64,000 nt of DNA. It comes from a virus. The stretch covers positions 124,972-188,971 of IMG/VR virus record IMGVR_UViG_3300048074_000120. The stretch is one strand, 5' to 3'. The position numbers were made by a program, and so were the translations under genes. The notes below the pieces were generated by a model. The model did no database searches and had not been told where the DNA came from. It was given only the letters and a program-made list of their open reading frames with translations. The stretch's first letter is position 1. Every line of letters begins with the position of its first letter. Of the stretch, positions 958 through 62,998 are shown piece by piece.

Positions 958-983
958 TTATCTCGCAATCCAATTCGTTTTGC
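958..983 (-). promoter_or_regulatory. leftward copy of the phage promoter motif (GCAA-N14-CGAGATAAG)
   Basis: Half of a near-palindromic divergent promoter CTTATCTC-GCAA-N11-TTGC-A-GAGATAAG. Confidence 0.6.
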
Positions 984-992
984 AGAGATAAG
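965..992 (+). promoter_or_regulatory. phage promoter motif GCAA-N15-AGAGATAAG
   Basis: Matches the repeated bipartite motif; followed by AGGAGG and the GTG start at 1015. Confidence 0.75.
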
Positions 993-1014
993 AGACGCGT
1001 AGGAGGAAAACACA

Positions 1015-1632
1015 GTGCACCACGCTTTAGACGATATACCGATCAACGCAACAACCAACGATTTACTCAAGAGGGGACGCTTCAACCTACGCCTACTGGC
1101 GGAAGAGCTTGGAGTGTTTGTTGATGAGGAAGCAAAAAGTTCATTCATGCAGTTAGACAACCAAGGGCAAGCTGAAGTTGTTCGCAATGCCTTACTGAAA
1201 TCCAGGGGTTTGCCCCCTGTGGAACCCGTGGACATGCGACAGAAGGTAAGTAATGCCGTCCTGGCTAGGGTCACCAAAATGCGCGCCGATTCATCCGATA
1301 CGTGGCACCTCTACAAAACTCAACAGAAAGTTGAATCTGTTAGAGGAGAGCTTGTCAGACAGTACGAGGCGCAACTCAACGCTCTTCGTATAGAAAACTA
1401 TGGAGGCATTGAGCTTAGGGACAGGGCCCTCCTTCAGCTTCGCACAGAGTCAAACACGACTTGGGAAGAACTGAATCTTGAACGTGTGAGGCACAAAAAG
1501 ACGAGCGTAGAGTTGGTACAAGCCAATGCATTGCTGTCTGAGCTGCGCGCAAGAATCAGACAGCTGGAACTCCAGGTGCAGAAGCGCGAACGAGCTTCGA
1601 AAAGAAAGAAGAAGCCAGCTAGGCGCAAATAA
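1015..1632 (+). CDS. hypothetical protein with C-terminal coiled coil and basic tail (205 aa)
   Basis: AGGAGG SD, GTG start, long ORF. Confidence 0.8.
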   Translation: MHHALDDIPINATTNDLLKRGRFNLRLLAEELGVFVDEEAKSSFMQLDNQGQAEVVRNALLKSRGLPPVEPVDMRQKVSNAVLARVTKMRADSSDTWHLYKTQQKVESVRGELVRQYEAQLNALRIENYGGIELRDRALLQLRTESNTTWEELNLERVRHKKTSVELVQANALLSELRARIRQLELQVQKRERASKRKKKPARRK

Positions 1633-1652
1633 CCTCAAATCTCGGGGATAAG
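1625..1652 (+). promoter_or_regulatory. phage promoter motif GCAA-N15-GGGGATAAG
   Basis: Consensus copy; AGGAGG SD and ATG 1673 follow. Confidence 0.8.
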
Positions 1653-1672
1653 AAAGGTAGAGGAGGAAACAC

Positions 1673-2011
1673 ATGCTCAAAGCCAATTCAAACGTTGCCA
1701 TCGATGCCGCTGTTTTCAAGAAGGACACCATCCCTCCAGCGAATCCCCAGACCCACATAACAACGCTGGCAGAAGGCTATACGCTCAGCTACGAGATGTA
1801 CATGGCCCTCAGCAGAATCCCCATCGTGTATGGGTCAGAGGACAACACAGCACTCATCTCCAAAGCTGACGCTTGGGCAGACATGGTTGTGCTCGGTGCT
1901 GCTCTGCGCGAGCAGAGTCTGCAAAAGCAAATCGAAGAGCAAGTAATACAACTTGAAGACTTAGAGATACAAGTGGCTGAAAGCGGTCTACGGACGCTCG
2001 GCACCTTGTAG
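1673..2011 (+). CDS. hypothetical protein (112 aa)
   Basis: SD plus ATG directly after the promoter motif; followed by a hairpin and TTAGCCC. Confidence 0.8.
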   Translation: MLKANSNVAIDAAVFKKDTIPPANPQTHITTLAEGYTLSYEMYMALSRIPIVYGSEDNTALISKADAWADMVVLGAALREQSLQKQIEEQVIQLEDLEIQVAESGLRTLGTL

Positions 2012-2025
2012 TTTTACACTTGGGA

Positions 2026-2050
2026 GAGCCACACGGCTTTTCCTTAGCCC
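2026..2050 (+). terminator. hairpin + T-tract + TTAGCCC element
   Basis: GAGCC-acac-GGCTT then TTCCTTAGCCC. Confidence 0.55.
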
Positions 2051-2100
2051 ACCATCAACCATGCCGCGGGTGTAGACTGGTAGTTGCCGACCAGGCGTAC

Positions 2101-2277
2101 AAAGGCCTCGGAGCATTGGTGCTTCCGGGGCCTTTTGCTTGGAAGCAACCGGCCCGCTGTATCGAAACATTCAGGGTTCAAGGGGATCGAGGCGTAGAAT
2201 GGAATCTGCTCAACGTGTGGTCCTTTGCTGCCCCCGTGTGCGAAGAAAGGCCTCGGTTGGAAACGACCGGGGCCTTT
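2101..2277 (+). repeat. twin hairpins AAAGGCCTCGG-loop-CCGGGGCCTTT (2101-2135 and 2246-2277)
   Basis: Both 11-bp arms are identical between the two copies; the loops differ. Confidence 0.85.
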
Positions 2278-2289
2278 CACTAAGTTGCC

Positions 2290-2868
2290 ATGTGCTCGTT
2301 GCACCTCAGTACTCCGGAAGAGCTGTTCAACAACTACAAACGGCTTGTCGCCCCTATTGTCAGTCACTACTACAAAAAGCTTGGCGCTAGCGCATCGTAC
2401 GACGAGCTCTACCAGTGGGGGCTGATCGGCCTTTGGGATGCCAGCAAGCGCTGGGTGGGTGAGATCGGGGGGTTTTCTTCTTACGCCAAGGGGCGCATCA
2501 GTGGGCAGATCATTGACGAGTATCGCGTCAGCACAAGTTACATTCGACGCCTTGGAAATAGCAAACAGCCCAAGTACGTAAATCTCGATGATGATAATGA
2601 TGAAGAAAGACCCAACCTCCAGCTAGTTGCGTGTACACAGCCCCTAGAGCAAGTCATCCATACCCATAGGAACCTGCGACGTCTAAGTGCCGCTTTCTAC
2701 GAATTGACTGGCAAAGAAATCTGTATCCTTCTTCTTTTCTACTTCGACGGCATAAAACTCCAAGAGATTGCAGAACAACTCGAACTCAGTGAAGCCCGCA
2801 TCTGCCAGATCAAGACGGCCGCCATCAAGAAGCTCAAGCAGGCTACTTGCCTCGAGATTGATTTCTAG
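2290..2868 (+). CDS. RNA polymerase sigma-70 family factor, FliA/WhiG (sigma-28)-like, compact with region 3 reduced
   Basis: Region 2 YDELYQWGLIGLWDA...FSSYAKGRISGQIIDEYR; region 4 HTH LQEIAEQLELSEARICQIKTAAIKKLK. Confidence 0.9.
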   Translation: MCSLHLSTPEELFNNYKRLVAPIVSHYYKKLGASASYDELYQWGLIGLWDASKRWVGEIGGFSSYAKGRISGQIIDEYRVSTSYIRRLGNSKQPKYVNLDDDNDEERPNLQLVACTQPLEQVIHTHRNLRRLSAAFYELTGKEICILLLFYFDGIKLQEIAEQLELSEARICQIKTAAIKKLKQATCLEIDF

Positions 2869-2926
2869 CTACCTTGTCCTTGCCAGCTGGGCTCTTCAAC
2901 CAGTCACCAGCCAGCGGAAGGACAAT

Positions 2927-3514: not shown

Positions 3515-3564
3515 TTGAACAAAAGGCACTTCCTCCGGTGATAACAACGCTGGAGGAAGTAGCC

Positions 3565-3789
3565 ATGCAGGCAATCAGCAACAGCACGCGTTGGGCATTC
3601 AATGTAGCCACACTCAATGACCTTCGCTGGCAACCAGAAAAGTCGAGTTGGACTCGTGCTTACGAGCAGCGGGTGTATTGGGGGACAGTGGAACTTCATC
3701 AAAAGATCGCCAATGGTGAAGGCAACGCCGTTGACCCAGCAGAGCCAGTGAGCGCACAGATGCTCCGCGAGATAGTCAAAGTCGCGTAA
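3565..3789 (+). CDS. hypothetical protein (74 aa)
   Basis: GGAGG SD and ATG 3565. Confidence 0.7.
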   Translation: MQAISNSTRWAFNVATLNDLRWQPEKSSWTRAYEQRVYWGTVELHQKIANGEGNAVDPAEPVSAQMLREIVKVA

Positions 3790-3803
3790 TTTTCGGAGAT
3801 AAG
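3776..3803 (+). promoter_or_regulatory. phage promoter motif TCAA-N15-GGAGATAAG
   Basis: Same spacing as other copies; GGAGG follows. Confidence 0.7.
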
Positions 3804-3822
3804 AGGGATGGAGGTAGCCAAC

Positions 3823-4113
3823 ATGATGACAGTTTCCGATTCAAGGAAAACCATCGAGAACGCCATCCATAGTTTGCAGCGGTCTCTCGATGTACTGCTT
3901 TTGGCAGACGGCACGGTGATGGACACTCCCCTTGCCCAAAACGCGGCAACGATCCAAGAAGCAGCAGACGCCATTGCCGACGAAGCCACATTCATCGAAC
4001 TCACCGAATCCCCTCGGGGCATCCTCTGCGCGCTGAGGGTGTCTCTCAAGAGAAAGCTGCTGCAGCGAAAGAAGCTGAAGCGCCGAACCATCTTTGTCAC
4101 CGATCGTGAGTAA
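3823..4113 (+). CDS. hypothetical protein (96 aa)
   Basis: GGAGG SD and ATG 3823 after the promoter motif. Confidence 0.75.
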   Translation: MMTVSDSRKTIENAIHSLQRSLDVLLLADGTVMDTPLAQNAATIQEAADAIADEATFIELTESPRGILCALRVSLKRKLLQRKKLKRRTIFVTDRE

Positions 4114-4137
4114 TTTCCCCTCCAATTCGGGGATAAG
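4110..4137 (+). promoter_or_regulatory. phage promoter motif GTAA-N15-GGGGATAAG
   Basis: Same spacing; GGAGG and ATG 4156 follow. Confidence 0.75.
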
Positions 4138-4155
4138 AAGAATGGAGGTACTCAC

Positions 4156-4428
4156 ATGTGTAATTCCAGCCAAAGTTGTTCAGCCACAAAGATCTCAGAC
4201 AAAGCATTAGCCGATGGCATCGATGCAATCTCGTCTGAGCTAGCCATGGCGAAGAGCAACATCCCGTTGGTGACGCAGCAGGAGCAGAGGGAAGAATTCA
4301 TGGCAGCGCTGCACGAGCTCTTGCTCGCCGTCCAAGACGTCAACGTTGGCATCAATCAAGCCAATGACGCGTACGTTGCGGAGTTCGGGGAAAAAGAGCC
4401 CGACACGCTCAACGCGCTACAGCACTAA
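4156..4428 (+). CDS. hypothetical helical protein (90 aa)
   Basis: SD plus ATG after the promoter; terminator follows. Confidence 0.75.
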   Translation: MCNSSQSCSATKISDKALADGIDAISSELAMAKSNIPLVTQQEQREEFMAALHELLLAVQDVNVGINQANDAYVAEFGEKEPDTLNALQH

Positions 4429-4440
4429 GTGAAAACGAGA

Positions 4441-4470
4441 AAATGGGTCACACCATTTTTTCGTAGCTCC
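4441..4470 (+). terminator. hairpin + T-tract + GTAGCTCC element
   Basis: AAATGG-gtcaca-CCATTT TTT CGTAGCTCC abutting the next promoter. Confidence 0.55.
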
Positions 4471-4498
4471 GCAAAGTCGGGTGGTTACAAGGAATAAG
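4471..4498 (+). promoter_or_regulatory. phage promoter motif GCAA-N15-AGGAATAAG
   Basis: Same spacing; AGAAGGAG follows. Confidence 0.7.
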
Positions 4499-4531
4499 AA
4501 GGGTAGAAGGAGATGATGCAAGCCAACTGGC

Positions 4532-4843
4532 GTGCATCGAAACACCATGAAACAAACCCTACCCATCGCCACAGCAACGTTGATGTCTCTCTCCTGGGAA
4601 AAGCCACTCAACTTGGCCACTGGAAAAGGCTATGGCACCAACGAGTACAGCTCTCGAGATCGATACATCTACCGTAGACGCCCCAGTGCGTCAGCGACGC
4701 CGACACGACAGGAAGCTTCGGCATTTGAGTTCCACAGAGCCCCGTACGGACTTGCCTACAACTACAGGACGTGGACCGATGTTCCTGAGAGTTTGTGGGA
4801 GCCTGTTGACGCGTATGGCATGCCCGCACGGCGCGCTGGCTAA
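4532..4843 (+). CDS. hypothetical protein (start uncertain)
   Basis: Track ORF ending before a strong hairpin; an alternative SD-led 54-aa ORF starts at ATG 4513. Confidence 0.45.
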   Translation: MHRNTMKQTLPIATATLMSLSWEKPLNLATGKGYGTNEYSSRDRYIYRRRPSASATPTRQEASAFEFHRAPYGLAYNYRTWTDVPESLWEPVDAYGMPARRAG

Positions 4844-4854
4844 ACATAAAATGA

Positions 4855-5178: not shown

Positions 5179-5181
5179 GAT

Positions 5182-5209
5182 CTAAAGCCTAGCAGTTTTC
5201 AGGCATAAG
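5182..5209 (+). promoter_or_regulatory. degenerate phage promoter motif CTAA-N15-AGGCATAAG
   Basis: Same spacing; GGAGG 6 nt after. Confidence 0.5.
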
Positions 5210-5213
5210 CACA

Positions 5214-6422
5214 TTGGAGGTCACCCTGTCAAAGAAAGACCAAAAGGGGCGTGTGCACCGGAAGGAACAGAAGCTGAAAAAGAGCAGAGAAAAGCTGCGA
5301 CAACGAGCAGCCACAGAACAGCTGCTGCACCCACAAAAGTTACCGATGAATGAATCGATGCTTCCAGTTGGGATCCTGTTTTGGTATTTCGTCAGGTGTC
5401 TCTGGTTGGGTAAGGAAAACCCAAGGATGGGTGAATACAAGGATCATATTGAAAAGCTCATCACCAGCAACGACGCCATTGGCAGCGCAGCACAATTTGC
5501 GAGTGCTGCTTCCTTCATGATGAAGGAACTACACCTAAGCTCAGAGTTTGTGGGAAAACTTGTCACATTTTTACAGCTATCTCTTCGACCAGAGAGCAGC
5601 AACATAAAGCAGCATAGTATTTTTGCTGACTGGTATGACAATGGTATGCCAGTGATCGAGGTGGGGCACAAGCTTGCGGCGTCATACATGGCCACTCGGA
5701 TCACAAAGGAGATGACTGCGAAAGCGCATTTACCTTTCTCATCTTTCAAGATTCAAGTCCCGGCGGGGCTACTACAACTAACGGATTGCCTAACAGGCAA
5801 ACCCGCGAACGTGACTGGACTGTACGTAGGCATTATGCTTGTGATGAGCACAGAACTCCGAGGCAAAGTCGAGGCATTGAGTGCAGAGGAAATTGCGCAG
5901 CAGTCTGGGCAACGCCCCTACATGCTATTAGTCAGCGACACAGGTACCTCGGCATGGCGGTCTTCATTCGATGCGGAAGAGGTGTTTACCTCTGCCGAAG
6001 TACCAGATGGAAAGTCTGCCGGACTGGATATGTCGCTGGAAGATCTGGACAAGCGGGCAATGATTTTGGCTGGGAGACTAGCAGCCAGCGTAATACTGCA
6101 CATCAATGGCGGGGAAGGGTGCTCGAGAGTCGGCACTGGCCATGAGAACTTCGATAGCACAACGAACAGGCGCAAATCTCCTCTCCCAACGCATAGAAGA
6201 TTTGTAATCACCAGAGATGTGCAACACGATATGCGTGAAGCCATACGAGACTTCATGTCTGGCAACAGAAAAACTCTCAGCGTGCAAACCATGGTTACTG
6301 GGCACTGGCGGTGGCAGCCCTTCGGAGCAGGTAGAACTCAGGTGAAACACATCTTCATTGAGCCATTCTGGAGAGGCCCAGAAGATGCCCCTATCGCACT
6401 ACGCAGACATAAACTTGAGTAA
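5214..6422 (+). CDS. uncharacterised phage protein with C-terminal GHWR...G...I.PFW.GP motif (start uncertain)
   Basis: 402-aa ORF; VTGHWRWQPFGAGRTQVKHIFIEPFWRGP resembles a widespread uncharacterised phage family. Confidence 0.8.
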   Translation: MEVTLSKKDQKGRVHRKEQKLKKSREKLRQRAATEQLLHPQKLPMNESMLPVGILFWYFVRCLWLGKENPRMGEYKDHIEKLITSNDAIGSAAQFASAASFMMKELHLSSEFVGKLVTFLQLSLRPESSNIKQHSIFADWYDNGMPVIEVGHKLAASYMATRITKEMTAKAHLPFSSFKIQVPAGLLQLTDCLTGKPANVTGLYVGIMLVMSTELRGKVEALSAEEIAQQSGQRPYMLLVSDTGTSAWRSSFDAEEVFTSAEVPDGKSAGLDMSLEDLDKRAMILAGRLAASVILHINGGEGCSRVGTGHENFDSTTNRRKSPLPTHRRFVITRDVQHDMREAIRDFMSGNRKTLSVQTMVTGHWRWQPFGAGRTQVKHIFIEPFWRGPEDAPIALRRHKLE

Positions 6423-6463: not shown

Positions 6464-7030
6464 ATGACGCTTGCTGCATTTTACTCAGATCCACACATCG
6501 GGCATGCCAACATCATCAAATACTGCGAGAGGCCTTTCACCGATGTGGAGGAAATGAACCAAACCCTGGTGCAGCGCTACAACGCCAAGATCGATCGCAA
6601 GGACGTTGTCCTGTGGCTGGGGGATTGCTTCTTCAAAGGAGACCCCACCCGTTATCGAGACACCCTCCTGCAAATGAACGGTACCAAAATCCTACTAGTT
6701 GGAAACCACGACGGCTCCATGCCGGCTATGGCCAACCTTGGTTTTGCCTTGGTGCTGCAGGAAGCAGTACTCAATATTCGAGGGGTCACTTGCAGAGTGA
6801 ATCACTACCCCTACGAGGCCATACCTGTCTACGAGAAGCCTGATAAGTTTGCCGCGCTTCGCCCGCGCAAGCATCCAGGAGAGATTCTCATTCACGGACA
6901 CAACCACGCCAAAGGCCCTGTCAACGGCAACCAAATCAACGTGGGCGTGGACGCTTGGGATTTTGGCCCAGCCATGTACTACGAAGTTGCCGACTTAGTA
7001 GATCGTATCAAGCAAAGGACAACTACATGA
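6464..7030 (+). CDS. calcineurin-like metallophosphoesterase
   Basis: Motifs SDPHIGH, LGDCFF, VGNHDG, NHYP, IHGHNH, INVGVD. Confidence 0.92.
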   Translation: MTLAAFYSDPHIGHANIIKYCERPFTDVEEMNQTLVQRYNAKIDRKDVVLWLGDCFFKGDPTRYRDTLLQMNGTKILLVGNHDGSMPAMANLGFALVLQEAVLNIRGVTCRVNHYPYEAIPVYEKPDKFAALRPRKHPGEILIHGHNHAKGPVNGNQINVGVDAWDFGPAMYYEVADLVDRIKQRTTT

Positions 7031-11131: not shown

Positions 11132-11160
11132 AACGGTGCCTGCGACCGTTTCTTAGCTCC
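11132..11160 (+). terminator. hairpin + TTCTTAGCTCC element
   Basis: AACGGT-gcctgcg-ACCGTT TCTTAGCTCC abutting the next promoter. Confidence 0.6.
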
Positions 11161-11188
11161 GCAATCCACCGCAAGAATCGGGGATAAG
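11161..11188 (+). promoter_or_regulatory. phage promoter motif GCAA-N15-GGGGATAAG
   Basis: Consensus copy; AGAAGGAG and ATG 11203 follow. Confidence 0.8.
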
Positions 11189-11202
11189 AAAGGTAGAAGG
11201 AG

Positions 11203-11742
11203 ATGTGTAACATGAAGCGCAACTACAAGTTTTTCGTCCTCTGTGCGGTGCTGCTCACTTTGGCCAACTTGAGCTTTAGCGTGTACGCCCGCTCGCTCTC
11301 CCTCAAGCCTTCCCTCGTGTGCGAGAACCTCCAAAAAGCAGGCCTCGTTACCAAGTGCCAAGAAGGAGCCCCTTGGGCCTTCACGGTCACCAGGTACACG
11401 GCCCAATGGGAGTTCGAGCCGACCGGTGCTGAGGTCTTCAAGTGCTACACCGTCACAGACGGCCTTACGCACGTGCCCTGCCTGTTTAGGGGCACCGTGG
11501 CTCAGTTTGCCAGCGACGCCGACCTCGAGGCAGGCCTGGCTCAGATTCGCCAGCAGAACTACCGCAAGCACAGTGTGGCAGATTTGCAGGCAAACGTTAC
11601 CCGGGCGGACACCACGCTCGAGCAGTACGACTTCGAGGTATTGCGTGCAGAGCACCTGCTCGTCATCTTCCCCATCACGGAGAACCTTGGCGACATGCAA
11701 CGTGCTCTGTTGCAAATGAATGGCAGCTTCGAAGGGCTGTGA
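11203..11742 (+). CDS. exported or membrane-anchored hypothetical protein (179 aa)
   Basis: Basic then hydrophobic N-terminus (KRNYKFFVLCAVLLTLANLSFSVYA). Confidence 0.8.
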   Translation: MCNMKRNYKFFVLCAVLLTLANLSFSVYARSLSLKPSLVCENLQKAGLVTKCQEGAPWAFTVTRYTAQWEFEPTGAEVFKCYTVTDGLTHVPCLFRGTVAQFASDADLEAGLAQIRQQNYRKHSVADLQANVTRADTTLEQYDFEVLRAEHLLVIFPITENLGDMQRALLQMNGSFEGL

Positions 11743-12906: not shown

Positions 12907-12973
12907 CGCGTACTCCTGGCCAATCCTAGCATGACGCCCCCGTTGATCGGGACCTCTCTAGTCCATCAACTAG

Positions 12974-13001
12974 GCAAATTGCCGGTCATTTCAGGGATAA
13001 G
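12974..13001 (+). promoter_or_regulatory. phage promoter motif GCAA-N15-AGGGATAAG
   Basis: Consensus copy; AGAAGGAGG and ATG 13023 follow. Confidence 0.8.
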
Positions 13002-13022
13002 AAGGATAGAAGGAGGACTGCC

Positions 13023-13292
13023 ATGATCGGAAACATCACGCCGTCAGAACTGAGGTCAATCAACGTCCTCATGTACTTGCAAAGGATCGCTGGCATCGAT
13101 GTGAGTTTTGAAGAAGCTATTGAAGGCTGGAGAGCCCTCAGCGCTGCAGCTCAGGAGCAAATCATCACCGCAGTCGAGACAGCAAAGTTCATCAAGACCA
13201 GTTACCAAATGGGGAGGCAGCATGGAAACAAGACAAGCCAGACTTTACAAGGAACAACTACGGGAGAGCGCCACAGTACAGACCCTAATTGA
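13023..13292 (+). CDS. hypothetical protein (89 aa)
   Basis: SD plus ATG after the promoter. Confidence 0.75.
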   Translation: MIGNITPSELRSINVLMYLQRIAGIDVSFEEAIEGWRALSAAAQEQIITAVETAKFIKTSYQMGRQHGNKTSQTLQGTTTGERHSTDPN

Positions 13293-13501: not shown

Positions 13502-13541
13502 AAAGGCGCATCCCCTAGGGAACACGCCTTTTCTTAGCCCC
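13502..13541 (+). terminator. hairpin + TTTTCTTAGCCCC element
   Basis: AAAGGCG...CGCCTTTT CTTAGCCCC at a convergent junction. Confidence 0.7.
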
Positions 13542-19081: not shown

Positions 19082-19471
19082 CTACAAGCCATCGGGAGCG
19101 CTTAGCCCCTGGCAATGATACGAGTACGCAAGCTCTGAGCGCACCGAGAAAGACCAAATGCGTCCCTCTGAGTCTTCAACCCAAATTACGCGCTCTACTT
19201 GATACCGATCTGGGTGTTGCTCTGCGTACCAAACAGCGGCATCTAATGCAGTGAATCTTTCCACATGGAGCTTAGGCCCGCTCTCGGCCCAGCAGGTGTA
19301 CTCACGGGTCTCAGAGGCTTTCACGCGCCCGTTGTGTGCATGCTCAGCCATGTGGAGGAATCTTTTGGCATCCTCAAGCACCTTGTGAAACAGATGACCG
19401 CCAAGGTGGTGACGTACTTGCCACCAAAGCACGTTCATGTGCATTACAGCGTGTTGTTCGTGTTCATTCAT
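19082..19471 (-). CDS. hypothetical protein (129 aa)
   Basis: ATGA overlap with the upstream ORF. Confidence 0.65.
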   Translation of the reverse strand: MNEHEQHAVMHMNVLWWQVRHHLGGHLFHKVLEDAKRFLHMAEHAHNGRVKASETREYTCWAESGPKLHVERFTALDAAVWYAEQHPDRYQVERVIWVEDSEGRIWSFSVRSELAYSYHCQGLSAPDGL

Positions 19472-20427: not shown

Positions 20428-21530
20428 TCATTGAGAACTCCTATTCGCGTGGGCGTATTTGGTCTTCCCCAATACGCCTCGAAGTTTCTTGATAGCCCGT
20501 TGCTCTAGCTGCCTGGCACGCTCTCGAGAAAATCCGAGCTTTCGACCTAAGTCTGCCAAGCTCAATGGATCATCGCTCATAAGTCGATGCTCCACGATGA
20601 TTTTCTCACGAGGGTCCAATAGCTCCAGAGCCTTGCCAACGATTCCGCTGCACGCTGCAGCTTGCTCCTGCAGTTCGATGCGACGCTCCGGCTCTATCTC
20701 GTCAGCAGCCAGCGTATCAAGAAGAGGCGCCGTTCCAAAAGATCTGGCGTCTAGCGATACGTCGTAGCACTCAAGTCTTTGTAATAACCCCTGTACTTGT
20801 TCAGGGGGCATATCCATGCGCCGTGTCAGCAGCTGCTCGATGGCATCTCGATCTTCTCCCACTATGTTTCGAGCCCTGATGAGCTCTCGACGTAGCTTGT
20901 ATAGATCCTTGCTACGAACGAGTTCTTTACCAAGAATGGTGCGGGACTTCTGGATGTATTTCGAGATTGATGCCTTGATCCACCAGGCTGCGTAAGTGAC
21001 GAAGCGCAGCCAAAGTTGCCCTCGGCAATGAGCGCCTCGATGGGATGCCCGCACTTGGGGAATAGGTAAGCAATCTGCACAACATGATGCAAGTGGCAAC
21101 GAAGAATAAGGTTTCGTGCAGTGATGTCACCGTCAACCTTCCATGCATGCCAGAGTTTGAACTCTTCCTCAGCACTCAGCCGATTACGGATGTCAAAGCG
21201 GTAATTACCAGCAACACCCGCCTTGGTGATGACCGGTGCGGGCTCGGGCCCAATGGGCTCCAGCGCTGGTTTCTTTATGGTCTCAATCTTACCGATGGGC
21301 ACAAAGCGCGGCTTGCGCTCGATGCTTTCTACAACTTGCATTTGCACATTCTCACCCCTGCGTCTTGCGTGGTGCGCTTTCATTGCGTCAGATCGGCTGA
21401 TTTTGCCGACGTATTTGCACAGAGTCTCCCTGTGCATCCCGGTGACCTTCATGATGTACTGAAGGGAGTAACCGAGCCTTCTTAGCTCCTGTGCTTGTGC
21501 CACCTTCGCTGGGCTGGCGTAGTTAGACAT
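20428..21530 (-). pseudogene. N-terminal HTH + RpoH (sigma-32)-like sigma factor, split by a frameshifting deletion at about 21010
   Basis: Frame A ends ...LSAEEE...ARNLIL..HL..VV.IA...LIAEGNFG; frame B begins LRFVTYAAWWIKA...VSLD...LGFSRERARQLEQRA; the intervening L..A..KFDP..G segment is absent. Confidence 0.85.
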
Positions 21531-31601: not shown

Positions 31602-31665
31602 TGGATGGGCGTTCCGATCTCTTATGCATACGTACGGGGCGTAGACCTCGAAGTCTATCAGAGTT

Positions 31666-31693
31666 GCAAGCGATTTGAAAAGTCAGGGATAAG
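31666..31693 (+). promoter_or_regulatory. phage promoter motif GCAA-N15-AGGGATAAG
   Basis: Consensus copy; AGAAGGAGG and ATG 31715 follow. Confidence 0.8.
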
Positions 31694-31714
31694 AATTACG
31701 AGAAGGAGGCGACA

Positions 31715-31972
31715 ATGATTAGAGTTTTCGATGTTGATGAGCCAACCACAGAGATAGAACTACATCCGGACACCGTCGTGCGAACGATTGACATCAAGCA
31801 CTACCTCACGACAGGTATACTTCGCTTCATCGGTGAACCAAAGCCAGCTCAACAGGTTGCGCTGAGCGACGCCATGGTGGTTGAGACCGGGTTCGAGGAA
31901 GACCACGGCGCCACCGTGGTGATTCGAGTGGCTTCGAGAGAGGAACGCGGACGCTTAGCGCGCATGCACTGA
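31715..31972 (+). CDS. hypothetical protein (85 aa)
   Basis: SD plus ATG between promoter and terminator. Confidence 0.8.
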   Translation: MIRVFDVDEPTTEIELHPDTVVRTIDIKHYLTTGILRFIGEPKPAQQVALSDAMVVETGFEEDHGATVVIRVASREERGRLARMH

Positions 31973-31983: not shown

Positions 31984-32013
31984 AACTGGCCCTGCCGGTT
32001 TTTCCTTAGCCCC
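31984..32013 (+). terminator. hairpin + TTTTTCCTTAGCCCC element
   Basis: AACTGGC-cct-GCCGGTT TTTCCTTAGCCCC abutting the next promoter. Confidence 0.7.
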
Positions 32014-32041
32014 TCAATTGCGCTTCAAAGTACGGGATAAG
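32014..32041 (+). promoter_or_regulatory. phage promoter motif TCAA-N15-CGGGATAAG
   Basis: Same spacing; AGAAGGAG and ATG 32062 follow. Confidence 0.75.
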
Positions 32042-32061
32042 TACTTCAGAAGGAGTTCTGT

Positions 32062-33384: not shown

Positions 33385-33385
33385 C

Positions 33386-34282
33386 ATGAAGAAGTACAGA
33401 GATTGGTCTAAATTGACTCTGAGGCAAGGGCACCGTAGTGGCCATCTAGTTGTCATTGATGGAAAACCGAAGCTAGTAAACCCTAACAGTAAGCAGTACA
33501 GCTACAAGGTGCTGTGCCTCTGTGAGGGTTGTGGCAAAGTGGTGGCTTTACGTCCATACAGACTACTAGGGGACAAGTCTGCTCGAAGCTGTGGCTGTAA
33601 ACGTAAACCCCTAAAGCCGTTGATAGCTACTCCGGCAAGATACAAGTTAGTGAGACGTAGACCAGATCTGGGTAGGCATTACGTTGATATAGTTTGTAAG
33701 AGGTGCCACAAAGCGTCAACAATCAACCTTGCGATAGAACAAAAAATGAGGAGGACTCTAGGGGAGTGTCCCCTTTGCTATCAAAAATACATATGCAATG
33801 GAGATCTGTATTCCATCAGGGACTTGATGAAGCTGACTAACCTCAGCAAGCCAGGTGTGATGGGCCGTATCAACGCCGGCGTCAGCATTGCAACTCTTCT
33901 CGAGGAAGGGAGAATAAAGAAAGAACACAAACTTCACATGCGTGATCTGACAGAAGGAAGTCTAACTCCCTCCGGAGCATTTCTGGTGCTGAAAGTAGCA
34001 GTAAAGAAAACCAGGCATGCCGTACTGCACTTGGTTCAGTGCACCACATGTGGAAGAAGGCACACACTGGATAGTAGATCTCTATCCCGAAGCAGAAAGG
34101 GTTGCATAACGTGCGCGCACGGGTTCCACGCCCAAGTGGCAGGGGAGCCCTTATCCCTAAGGGAGTTATGCGAACTATTTTCTGTATGGAGGTGCAGACT
34201 GCATGGCGTAAAGGATAAGTTGAGCACCATCTTGGCCATAAGACGCCAAGAACATGCCACCTTCAAGCCTTGTAAAAGCTAG
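33386..34282 (+). CDS. multi-CxxC basic protein (298 aa), resembles Zn-binding modules of HNH/AP2-type endonucleases
   Basis: CLCEGCG...SCGC, CKRC, CPLC, CTTC, CITC; no clear HNH core seen. Confidence 0.75.
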   Translation: MKKYRDWSKLTLRQGHRSGHLVVIDGKPKLVNPNSKQYSYKVLCLCEGCGKVVALRPYRLLGDKSARSCGCKRKPLKPLIATPARYKLVRRRPDLGRHYVDIVCKRCHKASTINLAIEQKMRRTLGECPLCYQKYICNGDLYSIRDLMKLTNLSKPGVMGRINAGVSIATLLEEGRIKKEHKLHMRDLTEGSLTPSGAFLVLKVAVKKTRHAVLHLVQCTTCGRRHTLDSRSLSRSRKGCITCAHGFHAQVAGEPLSLRELCELFSVWRCRLHGVKDKLSTILAIRRQEHATFKPCKS

Positions 34283-41726: not shown

Positions 41727-42028
41727 GGACCTTTCTCTGCTGGCCCAGGCTGCTGGAATGCTCTGGCTAGCTCGTTTTGCATGAGGGCCACATTACGAGC
41801 TTGTTTCATACCAAGAAGAGTAGGGTTGAACGCCACGATGTCGTAGGTAGCTACTTTCACCGTGCGAGGTCCCGCCCCTAACGCACCGCTAGCGTCTAAC
41901 TCCTCAACAACGCGATCTAGGCGATATATCTGATAGCCCTCCTCGTCTAACGCGTTCAGGACGATCTCAAGACCCTCCTTCGCTACATTAGGCACGAACT
42001 TCCAAACCTTCTTTTGCTCATCCATCAC
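41723..42028 (-). CDS. hypothetical protein (101 aa)
   Basis: GGAGG SD. Confidence 0.7.
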   Translation of the reverse strand: MMDEQKKVWKFVPNVAKEGLEIVLNALDEEGYQIYRLDRVVEELDASGALGAGPRTVKVATYDIVAFNPTLLGMKQARNVALMQNELARAFQQPGPAEKGP

Positions 42029-43223
42029 TAGCCTCCGCCGGCTTTCTTAGCAGATACGTGCCCGCGAGTGCTTTGATTTCCATGCTCTTTGAAGTGTCCG
42101 TCTGTTTCTCTGCCAAAAGAGACAGCGCTGCAGCAGCCCACCACTTGGAGGGGAGGGGCTCGCCATCGCTACCAACGCCGGGCTTGGGGAGGTCAATAAC
42201 GCCATCGGTCAAGAAGCTTTCGATGGTTGAAACGTCCGACTTGGACAAGGCCTTGTTCAACCGATCTCTGAGCTTTACCCAAGGGATGTCCTCCGCATGG
42301 GCCTTGCCAATGGCATTGAGAAGTGTTTGTACTGACTCGGGCTTCATCACTTCGCGTACAGCTGACTGCTCTGCTGCAGCCACAGCTTCGAGCTCCTTGA
42401 CGGCAGCCCGGTCATCTAGCTTGATGTCCGTGTCCTGCACAACAGAGCCAATGTGGATTCGGCTAAAGGCATCCCCTGTGATGAAGCTGCCTTGCCCATT
42501 GAGGCGAAGCACATTGTGGCTGATCTTCACCTTGCCCTCACCAAAGTCGCTGTTACCCCAGCAGGTGCCGATGGCCACAAACTCCCCTGGGTAAGGTTGG
42601 AAGGCAAAGGGCAAGTAGGTCTGCAGGTGAACGCGAGTATCCGTAATGTGTGCTTTGATCGGCGCCAAGCCAACTTCTTGGCATACCTCGAGAAAAGGCT
42701 GGAGCACTGCTGCGCTGACAAGATGCCTGTTGTAGCTCTGAGTCAGGACCGCCCGGAGTTGTCCATTGACCGTGCGATGCAGGAATTCAGCTTCACGCTT
42801 CAGCTTATTGAGAAATCGCTGGTTTGCGTAAAGTGTGTTGAGGTTCACCACCAGGAGCTCTCGTTTCCAGGCTCCGGGCGTGTCCTCGTCAAGAAAGCCC
42901 AGGTAGGTGCGTTTGAGTCCGGCGATGTCGCTGAGGTGGCCAAGGGCGTGCTTGTGGATCGCCTTGGACTCCGCCGAACCCTGGCGCATCTTGTACCGAA
43001 TACGTACAGGCGAGTGGGCATTACCACCGTCGACAAAGAAGGACATGAGCTTTGGGTGAACGTAACGATCCGTCGGAACGTTGTCGGCACAAAACTGAAC
43101 GAGACGTTTTTGTTCTTGTGAGCCAAGAGTGATGTGAGAAAGGAGACGACGCTGCTGCATGCGTGTTTGTTCGTCATCCCGCACTTCGTAGTCTGCTGCT
43201 GAATAAGGCACAAATACCTCCAT
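42018..43223 (-). CDS. DUF932-like protein (401 aa)
   Basis: LRAVLTQSYNR, WGNSDFGEGKV.I...LRL pattern typical of DUF932. Confidence 0.6.
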   Translation of the reverse strand: MEVFVPYSAADYEVRDDEQTRMQQRRLLSHITLGSQEQKRLVQFCADNVPTDRYVHPKLMSFFVDGGNAHSPVRIRYKMRQGSAESKAIHKHALGHLSDIAGLKRTYLGFLDEDTPGAWKRELLVVNLNTLYANQRFLNKLKREAEFLHRTVNGQLRAVLTQSYNRHLVSAAVLQPFLEVCQEVGLAPIKAHITDTRVHLQTYLPFAFQPYPGEFVAIGTCWGNSDFGEGKVKISHNVLRLNGQGSFITGDAFSRIHIGSVVQDTDIKLDDRAAVKELEAVAAAEQSAVREVMKPESVQTLLNAIGKAHAEDIPWVKLRDRLNKALSKSDVSTIESFLTDGVIDLPKPGVGSDGEPLPSKWWAAAALSLLAEKQTDTSKSMEIKALAGTYLLRKPAEASDG

Positions 43224-43243
43224 GGTGACATAGTTGCACCACG

Positions 43244-43278
43244 CTTATCCCAGATGTAGTCACCGCTTGCGCGGCTAC
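43244..43278 (-). promoter_or_regulatory. phage promoter motif TAGCCGC-GCAA-N14-TGGGATAAG (minus strand)
   Basis: Only clear minus-strand internal copy; precedes the DUF932-thyX-rnhB run. Confidence 0.65.
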
Positions 43279-43279: not shown

Positions 43280-44041
43280 TCAGATGTTCTGTTTTACTTT
43301 GGTCGCGATAGAGGTCTTCAATCGCGATACCTTGGGCTGTGAGATGCCGAGTTGCGCGGCAAGCCCCGTTGTGTCTGTGATCTTCTTGGCGCCGCCTACG
43401 CCATAGATGTGCTGAAAGACCTTGGCTTCGTCGGGGGTGAAGTATTCGTGAGGACGCTGTTGCATCAGACGAATCACGTCTAGTTCCCGAGAAGAAGCGT
43501 TACCGAAGGGGTCTGTCTCGAAGCGAGAGGCAGGCACATCTTTGCGACGCGCCTTCATCAGCGTTGTGACCTTGTGCTCGGGTAAACCCATGCGAGCGGC
43601 AATCTCACCGTGCGTCGGGGCCCGGCCAAGCTCCTCGAGGAGTTCTTCTTGAGCTCGATCCAACGGACCGATGTTCACCGACTGCCCCTCGGGGATGTAG
43701 CCAACGTTTTGATAGCGTGCGTTGAACCGCTGCGCTTTAGGCAGGCGTGTTTGCACGTGGGTATTGAAGGCAACCCCGCGCTCCGGGTCAAAGGAGTGGG
43801 CTGCATGAATGAACTGCCGCTGAAGCTCTGCGTTGAATGCGGCAGGGTCTACTGCAGGGGCTTTCCAGTCCCTGGCCTTTCTCGCTAGCAAAGGCTCATA
43901 ACGCTTCAACAACGGTTGAAGCTGCTCTGGCTTTCTACCGGATTGATCCCAGGCATGCCAAAGCTGCAGGTCCTCTTCAGCCTTCTTGTTGGCTGTTTTC
44001 TCCTGCAGCTTCAGAAACTCCTGAGCTGGATTCTCATCCAT
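43280..44041 (-). CDS. RNA polymerase sigma-70 family factor, SigB/F/G-like (candidate late sigma)
   Basis: AAHSFDPERGVAFNTH (region 2), ELGRAPTHGEIAARMG (region 3), LAAQLGISQPKVSRLK (region 4). Confidence 0.85.
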   Translation of the reverse strand: MDENPAQEFLKLQEKTANKKAEEDLQLWHAWDQSGRKPEQLQPLLKRYEPLLARKARDWKAPAVDPAAFNAELQRQFIHAAHSFDPERGVAFNTHVQTRLPKAQRFNARYQNVGYIPEGQSVNIGPLDRAQEELLEELGRAPTHGEIAARMGLPEHKVTTLMKARRKDVPASRFETDPFGNASSRELDVIRLMQQRPHEYFTPDEAKVFQHIYGVGGAKKITDTTGLAAQLGISQPKVSRLKTSIATKVKQNI

Positions 44042-44920: not shown

Positions 44921-45621
44921 GCTCTTGCTGCAAACCTCTCGGATTGAGAAAGTAAAATCTCGGCAAGCTCAATGAGCCCCTGCATTCCCGTGCGCGCCAC
45001 GTGGGCCGCCTTAGCTAGGCGCGTTCCTACCCGCGTTAGCCTCACGTTGGGGTTTCGCAGCGACTGCCGTAGGATGACGGCAGACTCGCCCGCATAGCGG
45101 TACACGTGCTGCAGCAGCTTACGGTTGTTTTGATATATCTGGTCAGCCCCATCTCCTACGCGCACGGGTACTGCAGCGGGATCATCTGGTTGAAGCACCA
45201 TTCCTAGTGAAAAGGTGTGCTCGGTCATCACGCCTAAAAGCTCTTCATTGTCTCCTCGTAGCATCTCAATGAGGTTCGTTAGGCCTTCACGAGATCTCTC
45301 CCAGGGAGACATGGCTAGTTGCTGAGCTGTGCCCGAGGGTAACCCTACCGGCAAGCGGTAGAGCATCCATTCTACGCAAAGAAAAGCACGCAGGTGTTGA
45401 CGTGCTCGTGTGTTACTGAAGCGCTGAAGCTCTAAAAGCTCTTCTATGTAGTTGAGCTCACGGCTGTACGCGTCAATGGTGAGCACAGTGCTCTCTTCCA
45501 TGTATTTACGCACTTGAGCCAGATAGCTCTCAACTACAGGGCAGGCCGTGTACATGTAGCCTCCTGGTGCAAGAACGGATTGTTCGTAGTTCTTATGCCG
45601 CTTGCGCACTTGTAGTTGCAA
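44899..45621 (-). CDS. hypothetical protein (240 aa)
   Basis: Long ORF in operon. Confidence 0.7.
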   Translation of the reverse strand: MQLQVRKRHKNYEQSVLAPGGYMYTACPVVESYLAQVRKYMEESTVLTIDAYSRELNYIEELLELQRFSNTRARQHLRAFLCVEWMLYRLPVGLPSGTAQQLAMSPWERSREGLTNLIEMLRGDNEELLGVMTEHTFSLGMVLQPDDPAAVPVRVGDGADQIYQNNRKLLQHVYRYAGESAVILRQSLRNPNVRLTRVGTRLAKAAHVARTGMQGLIELAEILLSQSERFAARAWEIHRT

Positions 45622-57252: not shown

Positions 57253-57276
57253 GAAAAGGGTCTATAGTATCCTAAT

Positions 57277-57304
57277 GAAAATAGCAACTAAATTCAGGAA
57301 TAAG
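57277..57304 (+). promoter_or_regulatory. phage promoter motif GAAA-N15-AGGAATAAG
   Basis: Same spacing, Y|R predicted start at 57311. Confidence 0.55.
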
Positions 57305-57310
57305 ACACAT

Positions 57311-57472
57311 GAGAGACAACCACATTTGTGAACTACAGCACTATTACGTTCAACAAGCAGTCAGGAGTCGACGCGAGAAGACATTGATTGACGTATAGAC
57401 AGCCACCGAATCCCCGGTGGCGGCCGGGGCGGGAGCCCCGGCGCGTTGAATCGCCCCTTGTTTTTAGCTACC
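57311..57472 (+). ncRNA. candidate sRNA (promoter to hairpins + TTTTTAGCTACC)
   Basis: Predicted start falls inside the only ATG; two GC hairpins 57392-57441. Confidence 0.35.
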
Positions 57473-57473
57473 T

Positions 57474-57501
57474 GAAAATTCCCCGACAGATCAGGGATAA
57501 G
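57474..57501 (+). promoter_or_regulatory. phage promoter motif GAAA-N15-AGGGATAAG
   Basis: Same spacing, Y|R predicted start at 57508. Confidence 0.65.
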
Positions 57502-57561
57502 ACCACTGTACAGCGAACTCACTTGTAGATTGACGGATCTCGTGAAGTTATACGGCGCACA

Positions 57562-61799: not shown

Positions 61800-61969
61800 T
61801 ACCTTTTCATAGTATCACGCAAAAATGTGGGCAGACCGGGGATAAGAAAGTCGAAGGTACTGAACAGCTCTCCTCTCACATGGAGTGCATCTCCTTCTTC
61901 TTGGTTGGTACCTCCAGCTCGTCCTTTGGCAAGGCGAGTGTCCGTCCCCACGGGCCCCATCGATGACAT
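61799..61969 (-). CDS. possible 56-aa leader ORF coupled to the tape-measure-like gene (not in ORF track)
   Basis: CAGGAG SD + ATG 61969; TAATG overlap with the TMP start. Confidence 0.35.
   Translation of the reverse strand: MSSMGPVGTDTRLAKGRAGGTNQEEGDALHVRGELFSTFDFLIPGLPTFLRDTMKR
61819..61846 (+). promoter_or_regulatory. phage promoter motif GCAA-N15-GGGGATAAG
   Basis: Consensus copy, predicted start 61853; no SD-led ORF follows. Confidence 0.75.
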
Positions 61970-62035
61970 CCTAACTCCTGCTGAGTGTCATCGGTGGGGC
62001 GCCACTAATACCAAGGGCACCTATGGCTTAGCCCC
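61853..62035 (+). ncRNA. candidate sRNA or antisense RNA with anti-SD motifs
   Basis: Promoter, CU-rich tracts, 15-bp hairpin 61954-62000, ends at CTTAGCCCC. Confidence 0.4.
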
Positions 62036-62062
62036 TAAAAACCAGGGCAAACCAGGGATAAG
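62035..62062 (+). promoter_or_regulatory. phage promoter motif CTAA-N15-AGGGATAAG
   Basis: Abuts TTAGCCCC; AAGGAGG and ATG 62083 follow. Confidence 0.75.
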
Positions 62063-62082
62063 AACTGTGAAGGAGGAAGACG

Positions 62083-62196
62083 ATGCTGGTCATAATGGGC
62101 CTGGTGGGTATCGAACTGCTCATCAAAGTGCCCCTAAAAATTCACAACAAGTTCATGAGGGATCTCGCAAAGGCTAAGGCCGCAGGACGTTTATGA
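62083..62196 (+). CDS. small membrane peptide (37 aa, not in ORF track)
   Basis: AAGGAGG SD; MLVIMGLVGIELLIKVPLKIHNKFMRDLAKAKAAGRL; ATGA overlap with the next ORF. Confidence 0.65.
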   Translation: MLVIMGLVGIELLIKVPLKIHNKFMRDLAKAKAAGRL

Positions 62197-62501
62197 TGAA
62201 TCCAATGAACTTATCCGAGGCAGAACGTAGAGAAAAACAGCAGGAGGCAGGCCTGGAATTCCTGCCGAGATTGGAGCTAGTCGTGAGTGAATCAGTGAAT
62301 AACAAGACAGATAACGGCAACCGACGCGCGCAGGAAACCGAGCGCAACCAAGCCCGACAGGTCCTTCACAGGCTTTCCCGAGATGAAAGCTTTTGGGGGA
62401 TTGCGCTCCATGAACTGAAAAGAGCCGCGGTTACGGTCCCCATTTTCGCCACAGCTGCCTTGGGGGTTCTGTGGGTGAATAAGCGCTTCATACTCAAATG
62501 A
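62193..62501 (+). CDS. hypothetical protein with C-terminal TM helix (102 aa)
   Basis: AVTVPIFATAALGVLWV. Confidence 0.7.
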   Translation: MMNPMNLSEAERREKQQEAGLEFLPRLELVVSESVNNKTDNGNRRAQETERNQARQVLHRLSRDESFWGIALHELKRAAVTVPIFATAALGVLWVNKRFILK

Positions 62502-62507
62502 AGTAGC

Positions 62508-62553
62508 GGAAAAGACGCCGGTTTTACATGACCGAGCTTCTTTTCTTAGCCCC
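62508..62553 (+). terminator. hairpin + TTTTCTTAGCCCC element
   Basis: Imperfect hairpin then TTTTCTTAGCCCCTCAAATGAC; TTAGCCCCTCAAATGAC (17 nt) is identical to 58061-58077. Confidence 0.6.
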
Positions 62554-62688
62554 TCAAATGACCACTGTGGCAATGGCGTACATGAGGCGGCTACAACACA
62601 GACAAGTTGAATTCCCTTGAAGTGCTTGCAGATTCATTCAGAATGGCTATAGACACTACAACGAAACCCCAACCCGTAGGTATTCACC

Positions 62689-62967
62689 ATGAACAAGGTA
62701 ACCATTTTTGAGAGCCCCTTCGCGCTCGAAAATGCCCAGGTAATGCTGGACCTGTGCCGTGATGAGTACGAGCGGGCAGGACATGGGAGCATTGTTCAAT
62801 CTCTCAGGGGATTGGACGTTACGTCCTTTGAGTCAGCCCGACTTGCACTCCTCACGGTCCGCTCCATCCCAGCGTTAGAGGGCGTTGCTGACGTGCGCAG
62901 ATACACCATCAAGGCGCTTGCCGATGTCATCAACTCGATGAAGGCAACACAGCGCCTCGCCGGGTGA
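62689..62967 (+). CDS. hypothetical protein (92 aa)
   Basis: ATG ORF with protein-like composition. Confidence 0.7.
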   Translation: MNKVTIFESPFALENAQVMLDLCRDEYERAGHGSIVQSLRGLDVTSFESARLALLTVRSIPALEGVADVRRYTIKALADVINSMKATQRLAG

Positions 62968-62969
62968 CT

Positions 62970-62998
62970 GCAAAAACCTAGTACAGCTCAGAGATAAG
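62970..62998 (+). promoter_or_regulatory. phage promoter motif GCAA-N16-AGAGATAAG
   Basis: Motif copy upstream of ORF 63042. Confidence 0.65.

Follow-up and report, generated by a model that had tools for sequence, protein, structure and literature searches.

The final 64 kb of the 188,971-bp virus record IMGVR_UViG_3300048074_000120 (64,000 nucleotides, hereafter the window) contains a recurrent two-box element with the consensus gCAAa-N15-RGGGATAAG-N5-Y|R, followed by a Shine-Dalgarno site. We interpret this element, with a probability of roughly 0.6, as a lineage-private promoter of the sigma-70 family that looks like an extended -10 promoter with G in place of T at -7 and would be read by a phage polymerase together with a Gp10-like sigma factor. 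Its statistics, placement and conservation support the proposal of an earlier reading of the window (the original prediction) that it represents a promoter class of a phage-encoded transcription system, and it is from these properties that we infer its activity. That prediction had assigned the element to a FliA/WhiG-like sigma factor; as related phages keep the motif without such a gene, it is most likely read by a sigma factor that the lineage shares.

The record has a CheckV completeness of 100% and 55% G+C. The minus strand dominates its gene orientation, and plus-strand genes lie in islands. The R of RGGGATAAG serves as position 0 of the motif coordinates, and a position matrix spanning -21 to +11 was built from 16 plus-strand copies and used at a threshold of at least 14 bits. 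The present genome (G000) was compared with G001, a complete genome of 186,879 bp (G001rc being its reverse complement) that is collinear with it at 65-85% nucleotide identity and was found by scanning for a promoter-plus-ribosome-site word. A search with an alignment of Gp10-like sigma factors gathered 45 related records, among which 20 near-complete relatives were compared. Megablast of 20 kb against phage records, searches for related loci via the FliA-like sigma and via helicase, and a metagenome scan returned no relatives, and scans of the window with Rfam and for tRNA were empty.

All 16 plus-strand elements hold the word originally claimed for them, and the earlier census of the upstream tetramers is exact (GCAA 7, TCAA 2, CTAA 2, GAAA 2, GTAA 1, ATAA 1 and CAAA 1), with AA at -17/-16 in every copy. 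Their alignment reads gCAAa at -19 to -15, T-C at -2/-1, RGGGATAAGAa at 0 to 10 and T/C-purine at 14/15, followed by AGAAGGAGG. The pyrimidine-purine step, first claimed for most copies, is seen at +14/+15 in 16/16, and in 11/16 a start codon preceded by a Shine-Dalgarno site lies 10-21 nt beyond the purine. The window has 15 occurrences of RGRGATAAG where 1.3 are expected (0 of 100 shuffles reached 15), and the matrix yields 22 matches of at least 14 bits in 189 kb against 0.5 in Markov shuffles, confirming enrichment over shuffled sequence. The bare hexamer GATAAG shows no enrichment (64 seen, 72 expected): the signal is a composite, extended two-box element and not the bare hexamer.

Placement agrees with these counts. 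The best 19 matrix matches are intergenic in 18 cases, intergenic DNA being only 10% of the genome, and for most of them a start codon lies 18-27 nt downstream. Sites outside the seed set were recovered at genome positions 64742, 110014 and 111012 as well as in relatives. The element had been described as genome-wide; instead, its 19 strong sites are confined to the plus strand, 16 falling inside the window, so that it marks plus-strand cassettes. ATAAG lies within 60 nt upstream of 13/37 plus-strand genes but of only 3/79 minus-strand genes (control word, 2-3), and no strong copy precedes the long virion genes, as had been predicted.

The layout suggests how such a promoter would be organized. 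The gCAAa sequence at motif positions -19 to -15 would act as a -35-like box, with a 17-nt spacer between the hexamers. The G at position 1 would correspond to the G of the extended -10 'TG', that is promoter position -14, and GATAAG at positions 3 to 8 to the -10 hexamer (-12 to -7), with A at -11 and an invariant G at -7. The pyrimidine-purine step would fall at -1/+1, placing the predicted transcript start 7 nt past the hexamer, so that transcription would begin almost on the Shine-Dalgarno site, with leaders of 10-21 nt in 11/16 units.

Two boxes, separated by a spacer that varies in sequence but not in length, lie at a constant distance from the ribosome site and are followed by a pyrimidine-purine step; this is promoter anatomy and argues against another function, namely a boundary repeat of mobile cassettes or an RNA element in which GGGGATAAGAA pairs with a post-terminator word, TTCTTAGCCCC, for processing. 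Such functions would accommodate the variation of cassettes between relatives and the near-inverted partner word GGGGCTAAG (minus strand) that lies beside terminator hairpins at about six places per genome. The partner word, however, has no CAA box and occurs at a minority of cassettes, and the predicted start is downstream of the motif word, which would thus be missing from the cassette's own RNA; a non-promoter element is accordingly a very improbable explanation. The reading of the two words as an inverted repeat at cassette boundaries was rejected, the partner word having no CAA box and belonging to terminator tails:

Window 2043-2051, 13533-13541, 19101-19109, 32005-32013, 62027-62035 and 62545-62553, minus strand: GGGGCTAAG, which is CTTAGCCCC on the plus strand, following terminator hairpins and T-runs

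This tail word is a near-inverted copy of the -10 word, similar tails (T-run then TAGC) are present in the related phages Arash and D69, and it may be part of a lineage-specific termination signal.

The plus-strand copies in the window, each named by its position 0, are given below with span, upstream tetramer, -10 word, matrix score and the gene or genes that each would serve.

963-999, plus strand: copy 984, GCAA, AGAGATAAG, 22.5 bits, predicted start 999, in a divergent intergenic region; ORF 1015-1632
1623-1659, plus strand: copy 1644, GCAA, GGGGATAAG, 36.7 bits; operon of 1673-2011, 2020-2283 and the FliA-like sigma gene 2290-2868
3774-3810, plus strand: copy 3795, TCAA, GGAGATAAG, 32.2 bits; ORF with probable start 3823 and end 4113
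4108-4144, plus strand: copy 4129, GTAA, GGGGATAAG, 30.6 bits; ORF 4156-4428
4469-4505, plus strand: copy 4490, GCAA, AGGAATAAG, 26.5 bits, just after a hairpin and T-run; small ORF from 4513
5180-5216, plus strand: copy 5201, CTAA, AGGCATAAG, 25.9 bits; ORF ending 6422, with an uncertain start codon
6407-6443, plus strand: copy 6428, ATAA, GGGGATAAG, 35.4 bits; phosphoesterase gene 6464-7030 and subsequent genes
11159-11195, plus strand: copy 11180, GCAA, GGGGATAAG, 34.1 bits, after a hairpin and then TTTCTTAGCTCC; ORF 11203-11742
12972-13008, plus strand: copy 12993, GCAA, AGGGATAAG, 36.7 bits; ORF 13023-13292
31664-31700, plus strand: copy 31685, GCAA, AGGGATAAG, 27.7 bits, ortholog at G001rc 906; ORF 31715-31972
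32012-32048, plus strand: copy 32033, TCAA, CGGGATAAG, 22.5 bits; helicase gene 32062-33384 and HNH gene 33386-34282
57275-57311, plus strand: copy 57296, GAAA, AGGAATAAG, 29.3 bits; next, about 160 nt of structured sequence, no normal gene
57472-57508, plus strand: copy 57493, GAAA, AGGGATAAG, 32.8 bits; leader of about 110 nt with a hairpin, then ORF ending 58014
61817-61853, plus strand: copy 61838, GCAA, GGGGATAAG, 32.1 bits, ortholog at G001rc 25062; 28-codon ORF from 61880
62033-62069, plus strand: copy 62054, CTAA, AGGGATAAG, 32.9 bits, -35 box abutting the terminator-tail word CTTAGCCCC; ORFs 62083-62196 and 62193-62501
62969-63005, plus strand: copy 62990, CAAA, AGAGATAAG, 28.1 bits; ORF ending 63665

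Weaker candidates lie on the other strand.

950-986, minus strand: doubtful weak divergent copy, CGAGATAAG, below 7 bits, back to back with copy 984, spacer 1 nt shorter
43237-43273, minus strand: weak copy, TGGGATAAG, below 7 bits, spacer 1 nt shorter, between the Gp10-like sigma gene and ORF 42018-43223
45585-45621, minus strand: weak candidate absent from the original list, GCAA in register, CGGCATAAG, inside the head-gene block

The first two are the minus-strand copies originally placed at 965 and 43252, both short of 7 bits and with the spacer reduced by 1 nt. The first has no counterpart in the G001 scan, G001 has GGGTATAAG at the position equivalent to the second, and the candidate in the head-gene block has a counterpart at G001rc 11416 that scores 15.1 bits.

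Many copies directly follow a hairpin, a T-run and TTAGC, which gives the units the look of promoter-gene-terminator cassettes; each copy would thus head a short plus-strand cassette of mostly ORFans, many of them ending in a hairpin, T-run and TTAGC tail. Almost all downstream genes are small ORFans without a Pfam or PHROG match; the FliA-like sigma gene, the phosphoesterase gene and the helicase/HNH pair stand apart. The regulon had been expected to drive DNA-metabolism genes, which holds for one helicase/HNH pair (32062-34282) and a phosphoesterase (6464-7030) but not otherwise. Arash likewise carries a motif copy ahead of a helicase gene. At the main replication module (genome 71.8-87.7 kb; helicases, primase, UvsX-like protein and DNA polymerase) the sole match is a weak variant at 71752. 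Another weak variant, at genome 60541 and conserved in G001, belongs to an ATPase/HNH block. As an aid to annotation, the motif sets the limits of about 20 transcription units in this genome and points to several tiny genes or RNAs.

Several copies have unusual surroundings. Past copy 5201 (window 5201-5260), no ATG, GTG or TTG is found at the usual distance beyond GGAGG, the ribosome site is followed, 5 nt on, by an in-frame CTG, and the nearest G001rc counterpart, at 155736, is a weak pairing. Behind copy 57296, about 160 nt of the plus strand (window 57309-57470) fold strongly (fold z-score -4.4) and end with GC-rich hairpins and a T-run. A small RNA is one reading of this stretch; the other is a 29-codon ORF, whose mRNA would be leaderless because its ATG overlaps the predicted start. 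The 28-codon ORF at 61880-61966 (plus strand), encoding ME..SFFL....FGKA, is partly conserved in G001. The best-conserved copy lies outside the window, at genome 64742 (plus strand), 60,229 bases before the window start, and G001 matches it at every position from -10 to +25. With no ORF downstream and convergent minus-strand genes ahead of it, this copy may give an antisense transcript.

Conservation follows the proposed boxes. Across 10 site pairs between the present genome and G001, the -10 box (identity 0.91) and the -35 box (0.74) are better conserved than the spacer (0.55) and the downstream DNA (0.44); at the ortholog of copy 12993 (G001rc 162045), for instance, the boxes are conserved and the spacer has diverged. 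On its equivalent strand, G001 carries about 17 strong sites built in this way, and several of these are orthologous in position. The word GGGATAAG is strand-biased in G001 (1 forward, 11 reverse), G002 (2/10), G004 (0/9), G005 (1/11) and G006 (1/8), and G003 and G008 bear GGGNATAAG or GGAGATAAG sites.

In at least nine more distant genomes, G(G/T)TATAAG, accompanied by the same CAA box, is biased to one strand: G010, G012, G013, G014, G016 and G019 each have 30-35 copies on the favoured strand and 0-3 on its complement, and the two strands have 23 and 3 copies in G009, 14 and 0 in G015 and 2 and 11 in G017. G(G/T)TATAAG is not enriched over its control in G011. The cultured phage Arash, which grows on Salmonella, has 30 copies of GGTATAAG on one strand against 2.4 expected, this being the most over-represented 8-mer of its genome; the usual form is TGGTATAAG-(t/a)aaRgTGTA ahead of the ribosome site, with a CCAAT/TCAAT box upstream. 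Vibrio phage D69 has 18 of its 19 GTTATAAG copies on one strand, with TT(C/A)AA(T/C) about 16 nt upstream, and many of these copies lie right behind a terminator T-run and TTTTTAG. ATAAG is found within 60 nt upstream of 23/84 genes in Arash and 25/71 in D69 on the motif strand, and of 1/28 and 1/21 on the other. The word CTAAAATA in Arash, considered as a minus-strand promoter, proved to be this motif read in reverse, together with the T-run upstream of it. The ancestral form may have been extended -10-like with G at -7, the hexamer having become GATAAG in the present sub-lineage, which would account for its sigma-28 look.

The ATAAG core is retained across phages of Salmonella, Vibrio and unidentified hosts, over 45-62% G+C. 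This constancy weighs against the idea that the host RNA polymerase with a host sigma factor (primary or host FliA) reads the motif while the phage polymerase serves other genes. The early genes of most phages rely on the host holoenzyme, the TGnTATAAG of Arash and D69 fits the extended -10 consensus save one position, and the form in the present phage resembles a sigma-28 site. T at -7 is, however, among the most important bases for sigma-70, and the last base of the hexamer is G in 16/16 copies and in relatives. Matches of sigma-70 type are moreover under-represented over window 1-54000 as a whole (13 against about 28.6 expected from shuffles): they show no enrichment in the cassette region (6 against 7.6) and depletion in the rest (6 against 12.6 and 1 against 8.4). 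Given also that a polymerase and a sigma factor have been found in Arash virions, we regard reading by the host enzyme as unlikely.

The window encodes three sigma-family genes.

2290-2868, plus strand: FliA/WhiG-like sigma, 192 aa, with Pfam regions 2 and 4 only, behind copy 1644
20428-21530, minus strand: RpoD/RpoH-like sigma, good region 4, reading frame broken in two near 20990-21010
43280-44041, minus strand: Gp10-like sigma, best family match SigB/F/G, region 3 detected, the proposed reader

The Gp10-like sigma is the only sigma factor common to all motif-bearing genomes. It is present in all 45 loci found, in a search itself based on Gp10-like sigmas, and is the single sigma detected by the FliA/WhiG model in G002, G004, G005 and G006. 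It matches Arash gp10 (E 2e-15, 91% of length) and is also matched in Vibrio phages D69, D148 and D181; Arash and D69 each have a second sigma of their own (gp196 in Arash). Purified Arash virions contain the RNA polymerase subunits beta (Gp206, the most abundant protein by spectra) and beta' (Gp216) and the sigma factor Gp010, with 100% coverage and 467 spectra, whereas gp196 is never named in that paper and is not in its virion table (PMC10585845). By analogy with Arash, we propose that the reader in the present phage is its own putative single-chain beta-beta' RNA polymerase, for which a 2135-codon ORF at genome 54062-60469 is the candidate, together with the Gp10-like sigma, and that both are probably carried in the virion. 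Virion-borne polymerase and sigma would allow the cassettes to be switched on at the start of infection without a host sigma factor.

Two further observations concern these genes. Residues 8-17 of the Gp10-like sigma, EFLKLQEKTA, near an N-terminus (window 43991-44041, minus strand) whose extension is lacking in Arash and D69, loosely resemble the head-protein tags FMRQELEKVA, LLDELQKLA and FIDELQKIG. They could form a capsid-targeting signal; the likeness is loose and we did not use it as evidence. Upstream of the candidate polymerase ORF (genome 60470-60500, minus strand), GGCTATACT lies 2 nt before GGAG and a start codon and is identical in G001; this different -10-like word may mark another promoter class. 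A comparison of region 2.4 of Gp10-like sigmas, with a PDB alignment to RpoD, yielded no clean link between specificity residues and the G/T at -12, and was abandoned.

The naming of ORF 2290-2868 as FliA/WhiG-like is borne out, FliA and WhiG being its best-scoring families. It reaches 94.3 bits against a cut-off of 189.6 (TIGR02479) and 95.1 against 201 (NF005413), below the curated thresholds, and region 3 is not detected with Pfam. Sigma-28 (FliA/WhiG/SigD) promoters have the consensus TAAA-N15-GCCGATAA, with which the motif is in exact register, AA and ATAA being invariant. This register, the best family matches of the ORF and the situation in G003, the sole relative with a homologue and likewise a member of the GATAAG sub-lineage, where motif copies surround the FliA-like gene, would fit the original prediction that the ORF is the dedicated sigma of the motif and the cassettes a phage sigma-28 regulon. 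The gene, however, lies in an operon behind copy 1644, which makes it a product of the regulon, and something else must then read the motif first. G001, G002, G004, G005 and G006 retain 8-11 strand-biased GGGATAAG copies without a homologue; G001 in particular keeps about 17 sites, with no FliA-like ORF homologue (tblastn best E 2.8). Only 1/20 near-complete relatives has a homologue although relatives carry the motif family, the distant ones have TATAAG and not GATAA, and Arash and D69 use TGnTATAAG, nearer to an extended -10 than to a sigma-28 site. With a family score half of the curated cut-off and region 3 missing, a dedicated FliA-like reader is very unlikely, and the comparison of genomes suggests that the FliA-like sigma is likely regulon cargo and not the likely reader.

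The distribution of this gene is patchy. Its only close relative found, P0002, is 71% identical and lies on a 4.7-kb contig, and about 0.8 kb in G001 replaces the 3.9 kb that hold the ORF here. The homologue in G003 has the same short form and is 28% identical to the present protein. The distant genome G011 (IMGVR_UViG_3300028883_000032), whose -10 form is unclassified, carries a full-length, 269-codon FliA/WhiG-like sigma at 67594-68229 (plus strand; 105.9 bits). When genomes are sorted by -10 form, 2/8 of the GATAAG type (G000-G006 and G008) have a FliA-like gene against 0/11 of the TATAAG type (Arash and D69 included), so that among classifiable genomes such genes appear confined to the GATAAG sub-lineage, a pattern that is suggestive but not significant.

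This bias, the likeness of the motif to the sigma-28 consensus and the location of the gene inside the regulon would be compatible with the FliA-like sigma being a second, redundant reader: the Gp10-like sigma would start the regulon, and the FliA-like sigma would then let the host core or the phage enzyme keep using all or some of the GATAA-type promoters. As most GATAAG-type genomes have no FliA-like sigma and the G000 and G003 proteins are only 28% identical, we give this scheme a low probability.

The RpoD/RpoH-like sigma (20428-21530, minus strand) has a good region 4 and is present in both G000 and G001, where it is intact (400 codons); the portion at 20428-21099 (minus strand) is RpoH/RpoD-like here, and Arash and D69 possess a second sigma of their own. 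It is nonetheless absent from G002, G004, G005 and G006, all of which retain the motif, and this distribution brings its role as reader close to refuted. It is, in addition, frame-split in the present genome, where the split could reflect a pseudogene, an assembly error or a programmed shift; its gene in G001 sits in an operon behind a GGGCATAAG copy; and gp196 of Arash is not in the virion table. We consider reading of the motif by this sigma extremely improbable. Under the proposed reading by the phage polymerase and the Gp10-like sigma, the FliA-like sigma and, in G001, the RpoD/RpoH-like sigma would be accessory products of the regulon that may prepare later steps or target the host polymerase.

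Several points weigh against our proposal. Start site, timing and reading sigma are all deduced, and the assignment to the Gp10-like sigma comes from gene distribution, which is confounded with phylogeny, and from one virion proteome. The Arash sigma in that proteome is only 28% identical to the present one, and the virion preparation also held clearly non-structural enzymes. The region-4 recognition helix differs considerably between the present phage and Arash despite their common CAA box. If several relatives indeed have no sigma but the Gp10-like protein, their minus-strand genes would have to be transcribed through it as well or through something else; Gibbs sampling of 79 and 81 upstream regions returned noise and no second promoter class for the minus strand. 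Finally, both carriers of a FliA-like sigma, the present genome and G003, belong to the GATAAG sub-lineage, which makes a secondary role at these promoters possible.

In summary, our analysis provides a concrete, testable promoter code for a phage lineage with a putative bacterial-type polymerase and its own sigma factor, and corrects the tempting misassignment of the FliA-like sigma as reader. Two cultured members, Arash on Salmonella and D69 on Vibrio, make start sites and the reading sigma checkable at the bench, and the invariant G at -7 offers a simple candidate means of separating phage from host promoters. A bolder extension, which we put forward tentatively and hold to be doubtful, is that a widespread lineage of about 180-200 kb has self-contained bacterial-type transcription, with its own beta-beta' polymerase and a virion sigma reading nnCAAn-N17-(T/G)ATAAG. 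The change of T to G at -7 would insulate it from host sigma-70, and host-type promoters would have been purged; here the code would have drifted toward sigma-28, and a captured FliA-like sigma would let the host core join at the same sites.

Compared with sigma-28 promoters, the likeness originally drawn stands in the 15-nt spacing, fixed in 16/16 plus copies, the AA of the upstream box and the GATAA core. It fails in the TAAA box (T is found at -19 in 2/16 and A at -18 in 3/16, and A fills both -17 and -16 in 16/16, with GCAA as consensus and G/C in place of T/A) and in FliA dependence, and the -10 element agrees in part. Against GCCGATAA, ATAA is found in 16/16 and the preceding G in 13/16, GCC is replaced by R-G-G, an extra invariant G follows ATAA, and relatives have TATAAG. 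As judged by comparison of genomes, the motif would not depend on a FliA-type sigma, being kept in G001, G002, G004, G005 and G006, which lack such a gene; 19/20 near-complete relatives of the present phage have no FliA-like sigma.

Extended -10 promoters of the sigma-70 family read TGnTATAAT, with or without TTGACA. The element shares with them two boxes with 17-18 nt between the hexamers, A at -11 and G at -14 (16/16 each) and a purine start predicted, on sequence grounds, 7 nt after the hexamer (pyrimidine-purine step in 16/16), and its relatives read TGGTATAAG (Arash) and TGTTATAAG (D69). It differs in that -7 is G in 16/16 and never T, a G that is invariant across the lineage, in that the hexamer begins with G here, in the -35 box, nnCAAn and not TTGACA, and in its reader, probably a phage polymerase. 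At -15, where the TG motif has T, the present phage has A or G and most Arash and D69 copies have T.

A close parallel is found in Arash (OQ632216.1; PMC10585845) and Vibrio phages D69, D148 and D181, which are about 180-190 kb in size and encode a homologous Gp10-like sigma adjoining virion genes. In Arash and D69, the strand that carries the non-structural genes also shows this promoter architecture, along with the T-run-then-TAGC terminator tail. The present phage shares with this family the strand-specific G-K-K-ATAAG and CAA box upstream of non-structural cassettes and the location of the Gp10-like sigma gene among virion genes. It differs from Arash and D69 by one or two bases of the -10 word, the sigmas are only 26-29% identical, and the beta and beta' genes of Arash are separate. 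We found no paper describing these promoters and no promoter or transcription analysis of Arash or its Vibrio relatives in the literature, and a paper on a polymerase-encoding Caudovirales lineage mentions neither sigma factors nor promoters (PMC7481178).

Private promoter words, with regulators of a later class encoded within an earlier one, are also a feature of SPO1 (gp28 and gp33/34), T4 (gp55), N4 and phiKZ/AR9. The sigma factors of SPO1 and T4, unlike the reader proposed here, ride the host core. N4 and phiKZ deliver an enzyme with the virion, as is only proposed for the present phage; that of N4 consists of a single subunit, those of phiKZ/AR9 work without a sigma factor, and a survey of jumbo phages reports a polymerase without sigma or a sigma without polymerase, but not both (PMC7824862). 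In contrast to N4, phiKZ and AR9, a bacterial-type polymerase with its own sigma-70-family factor would act in the present phage.

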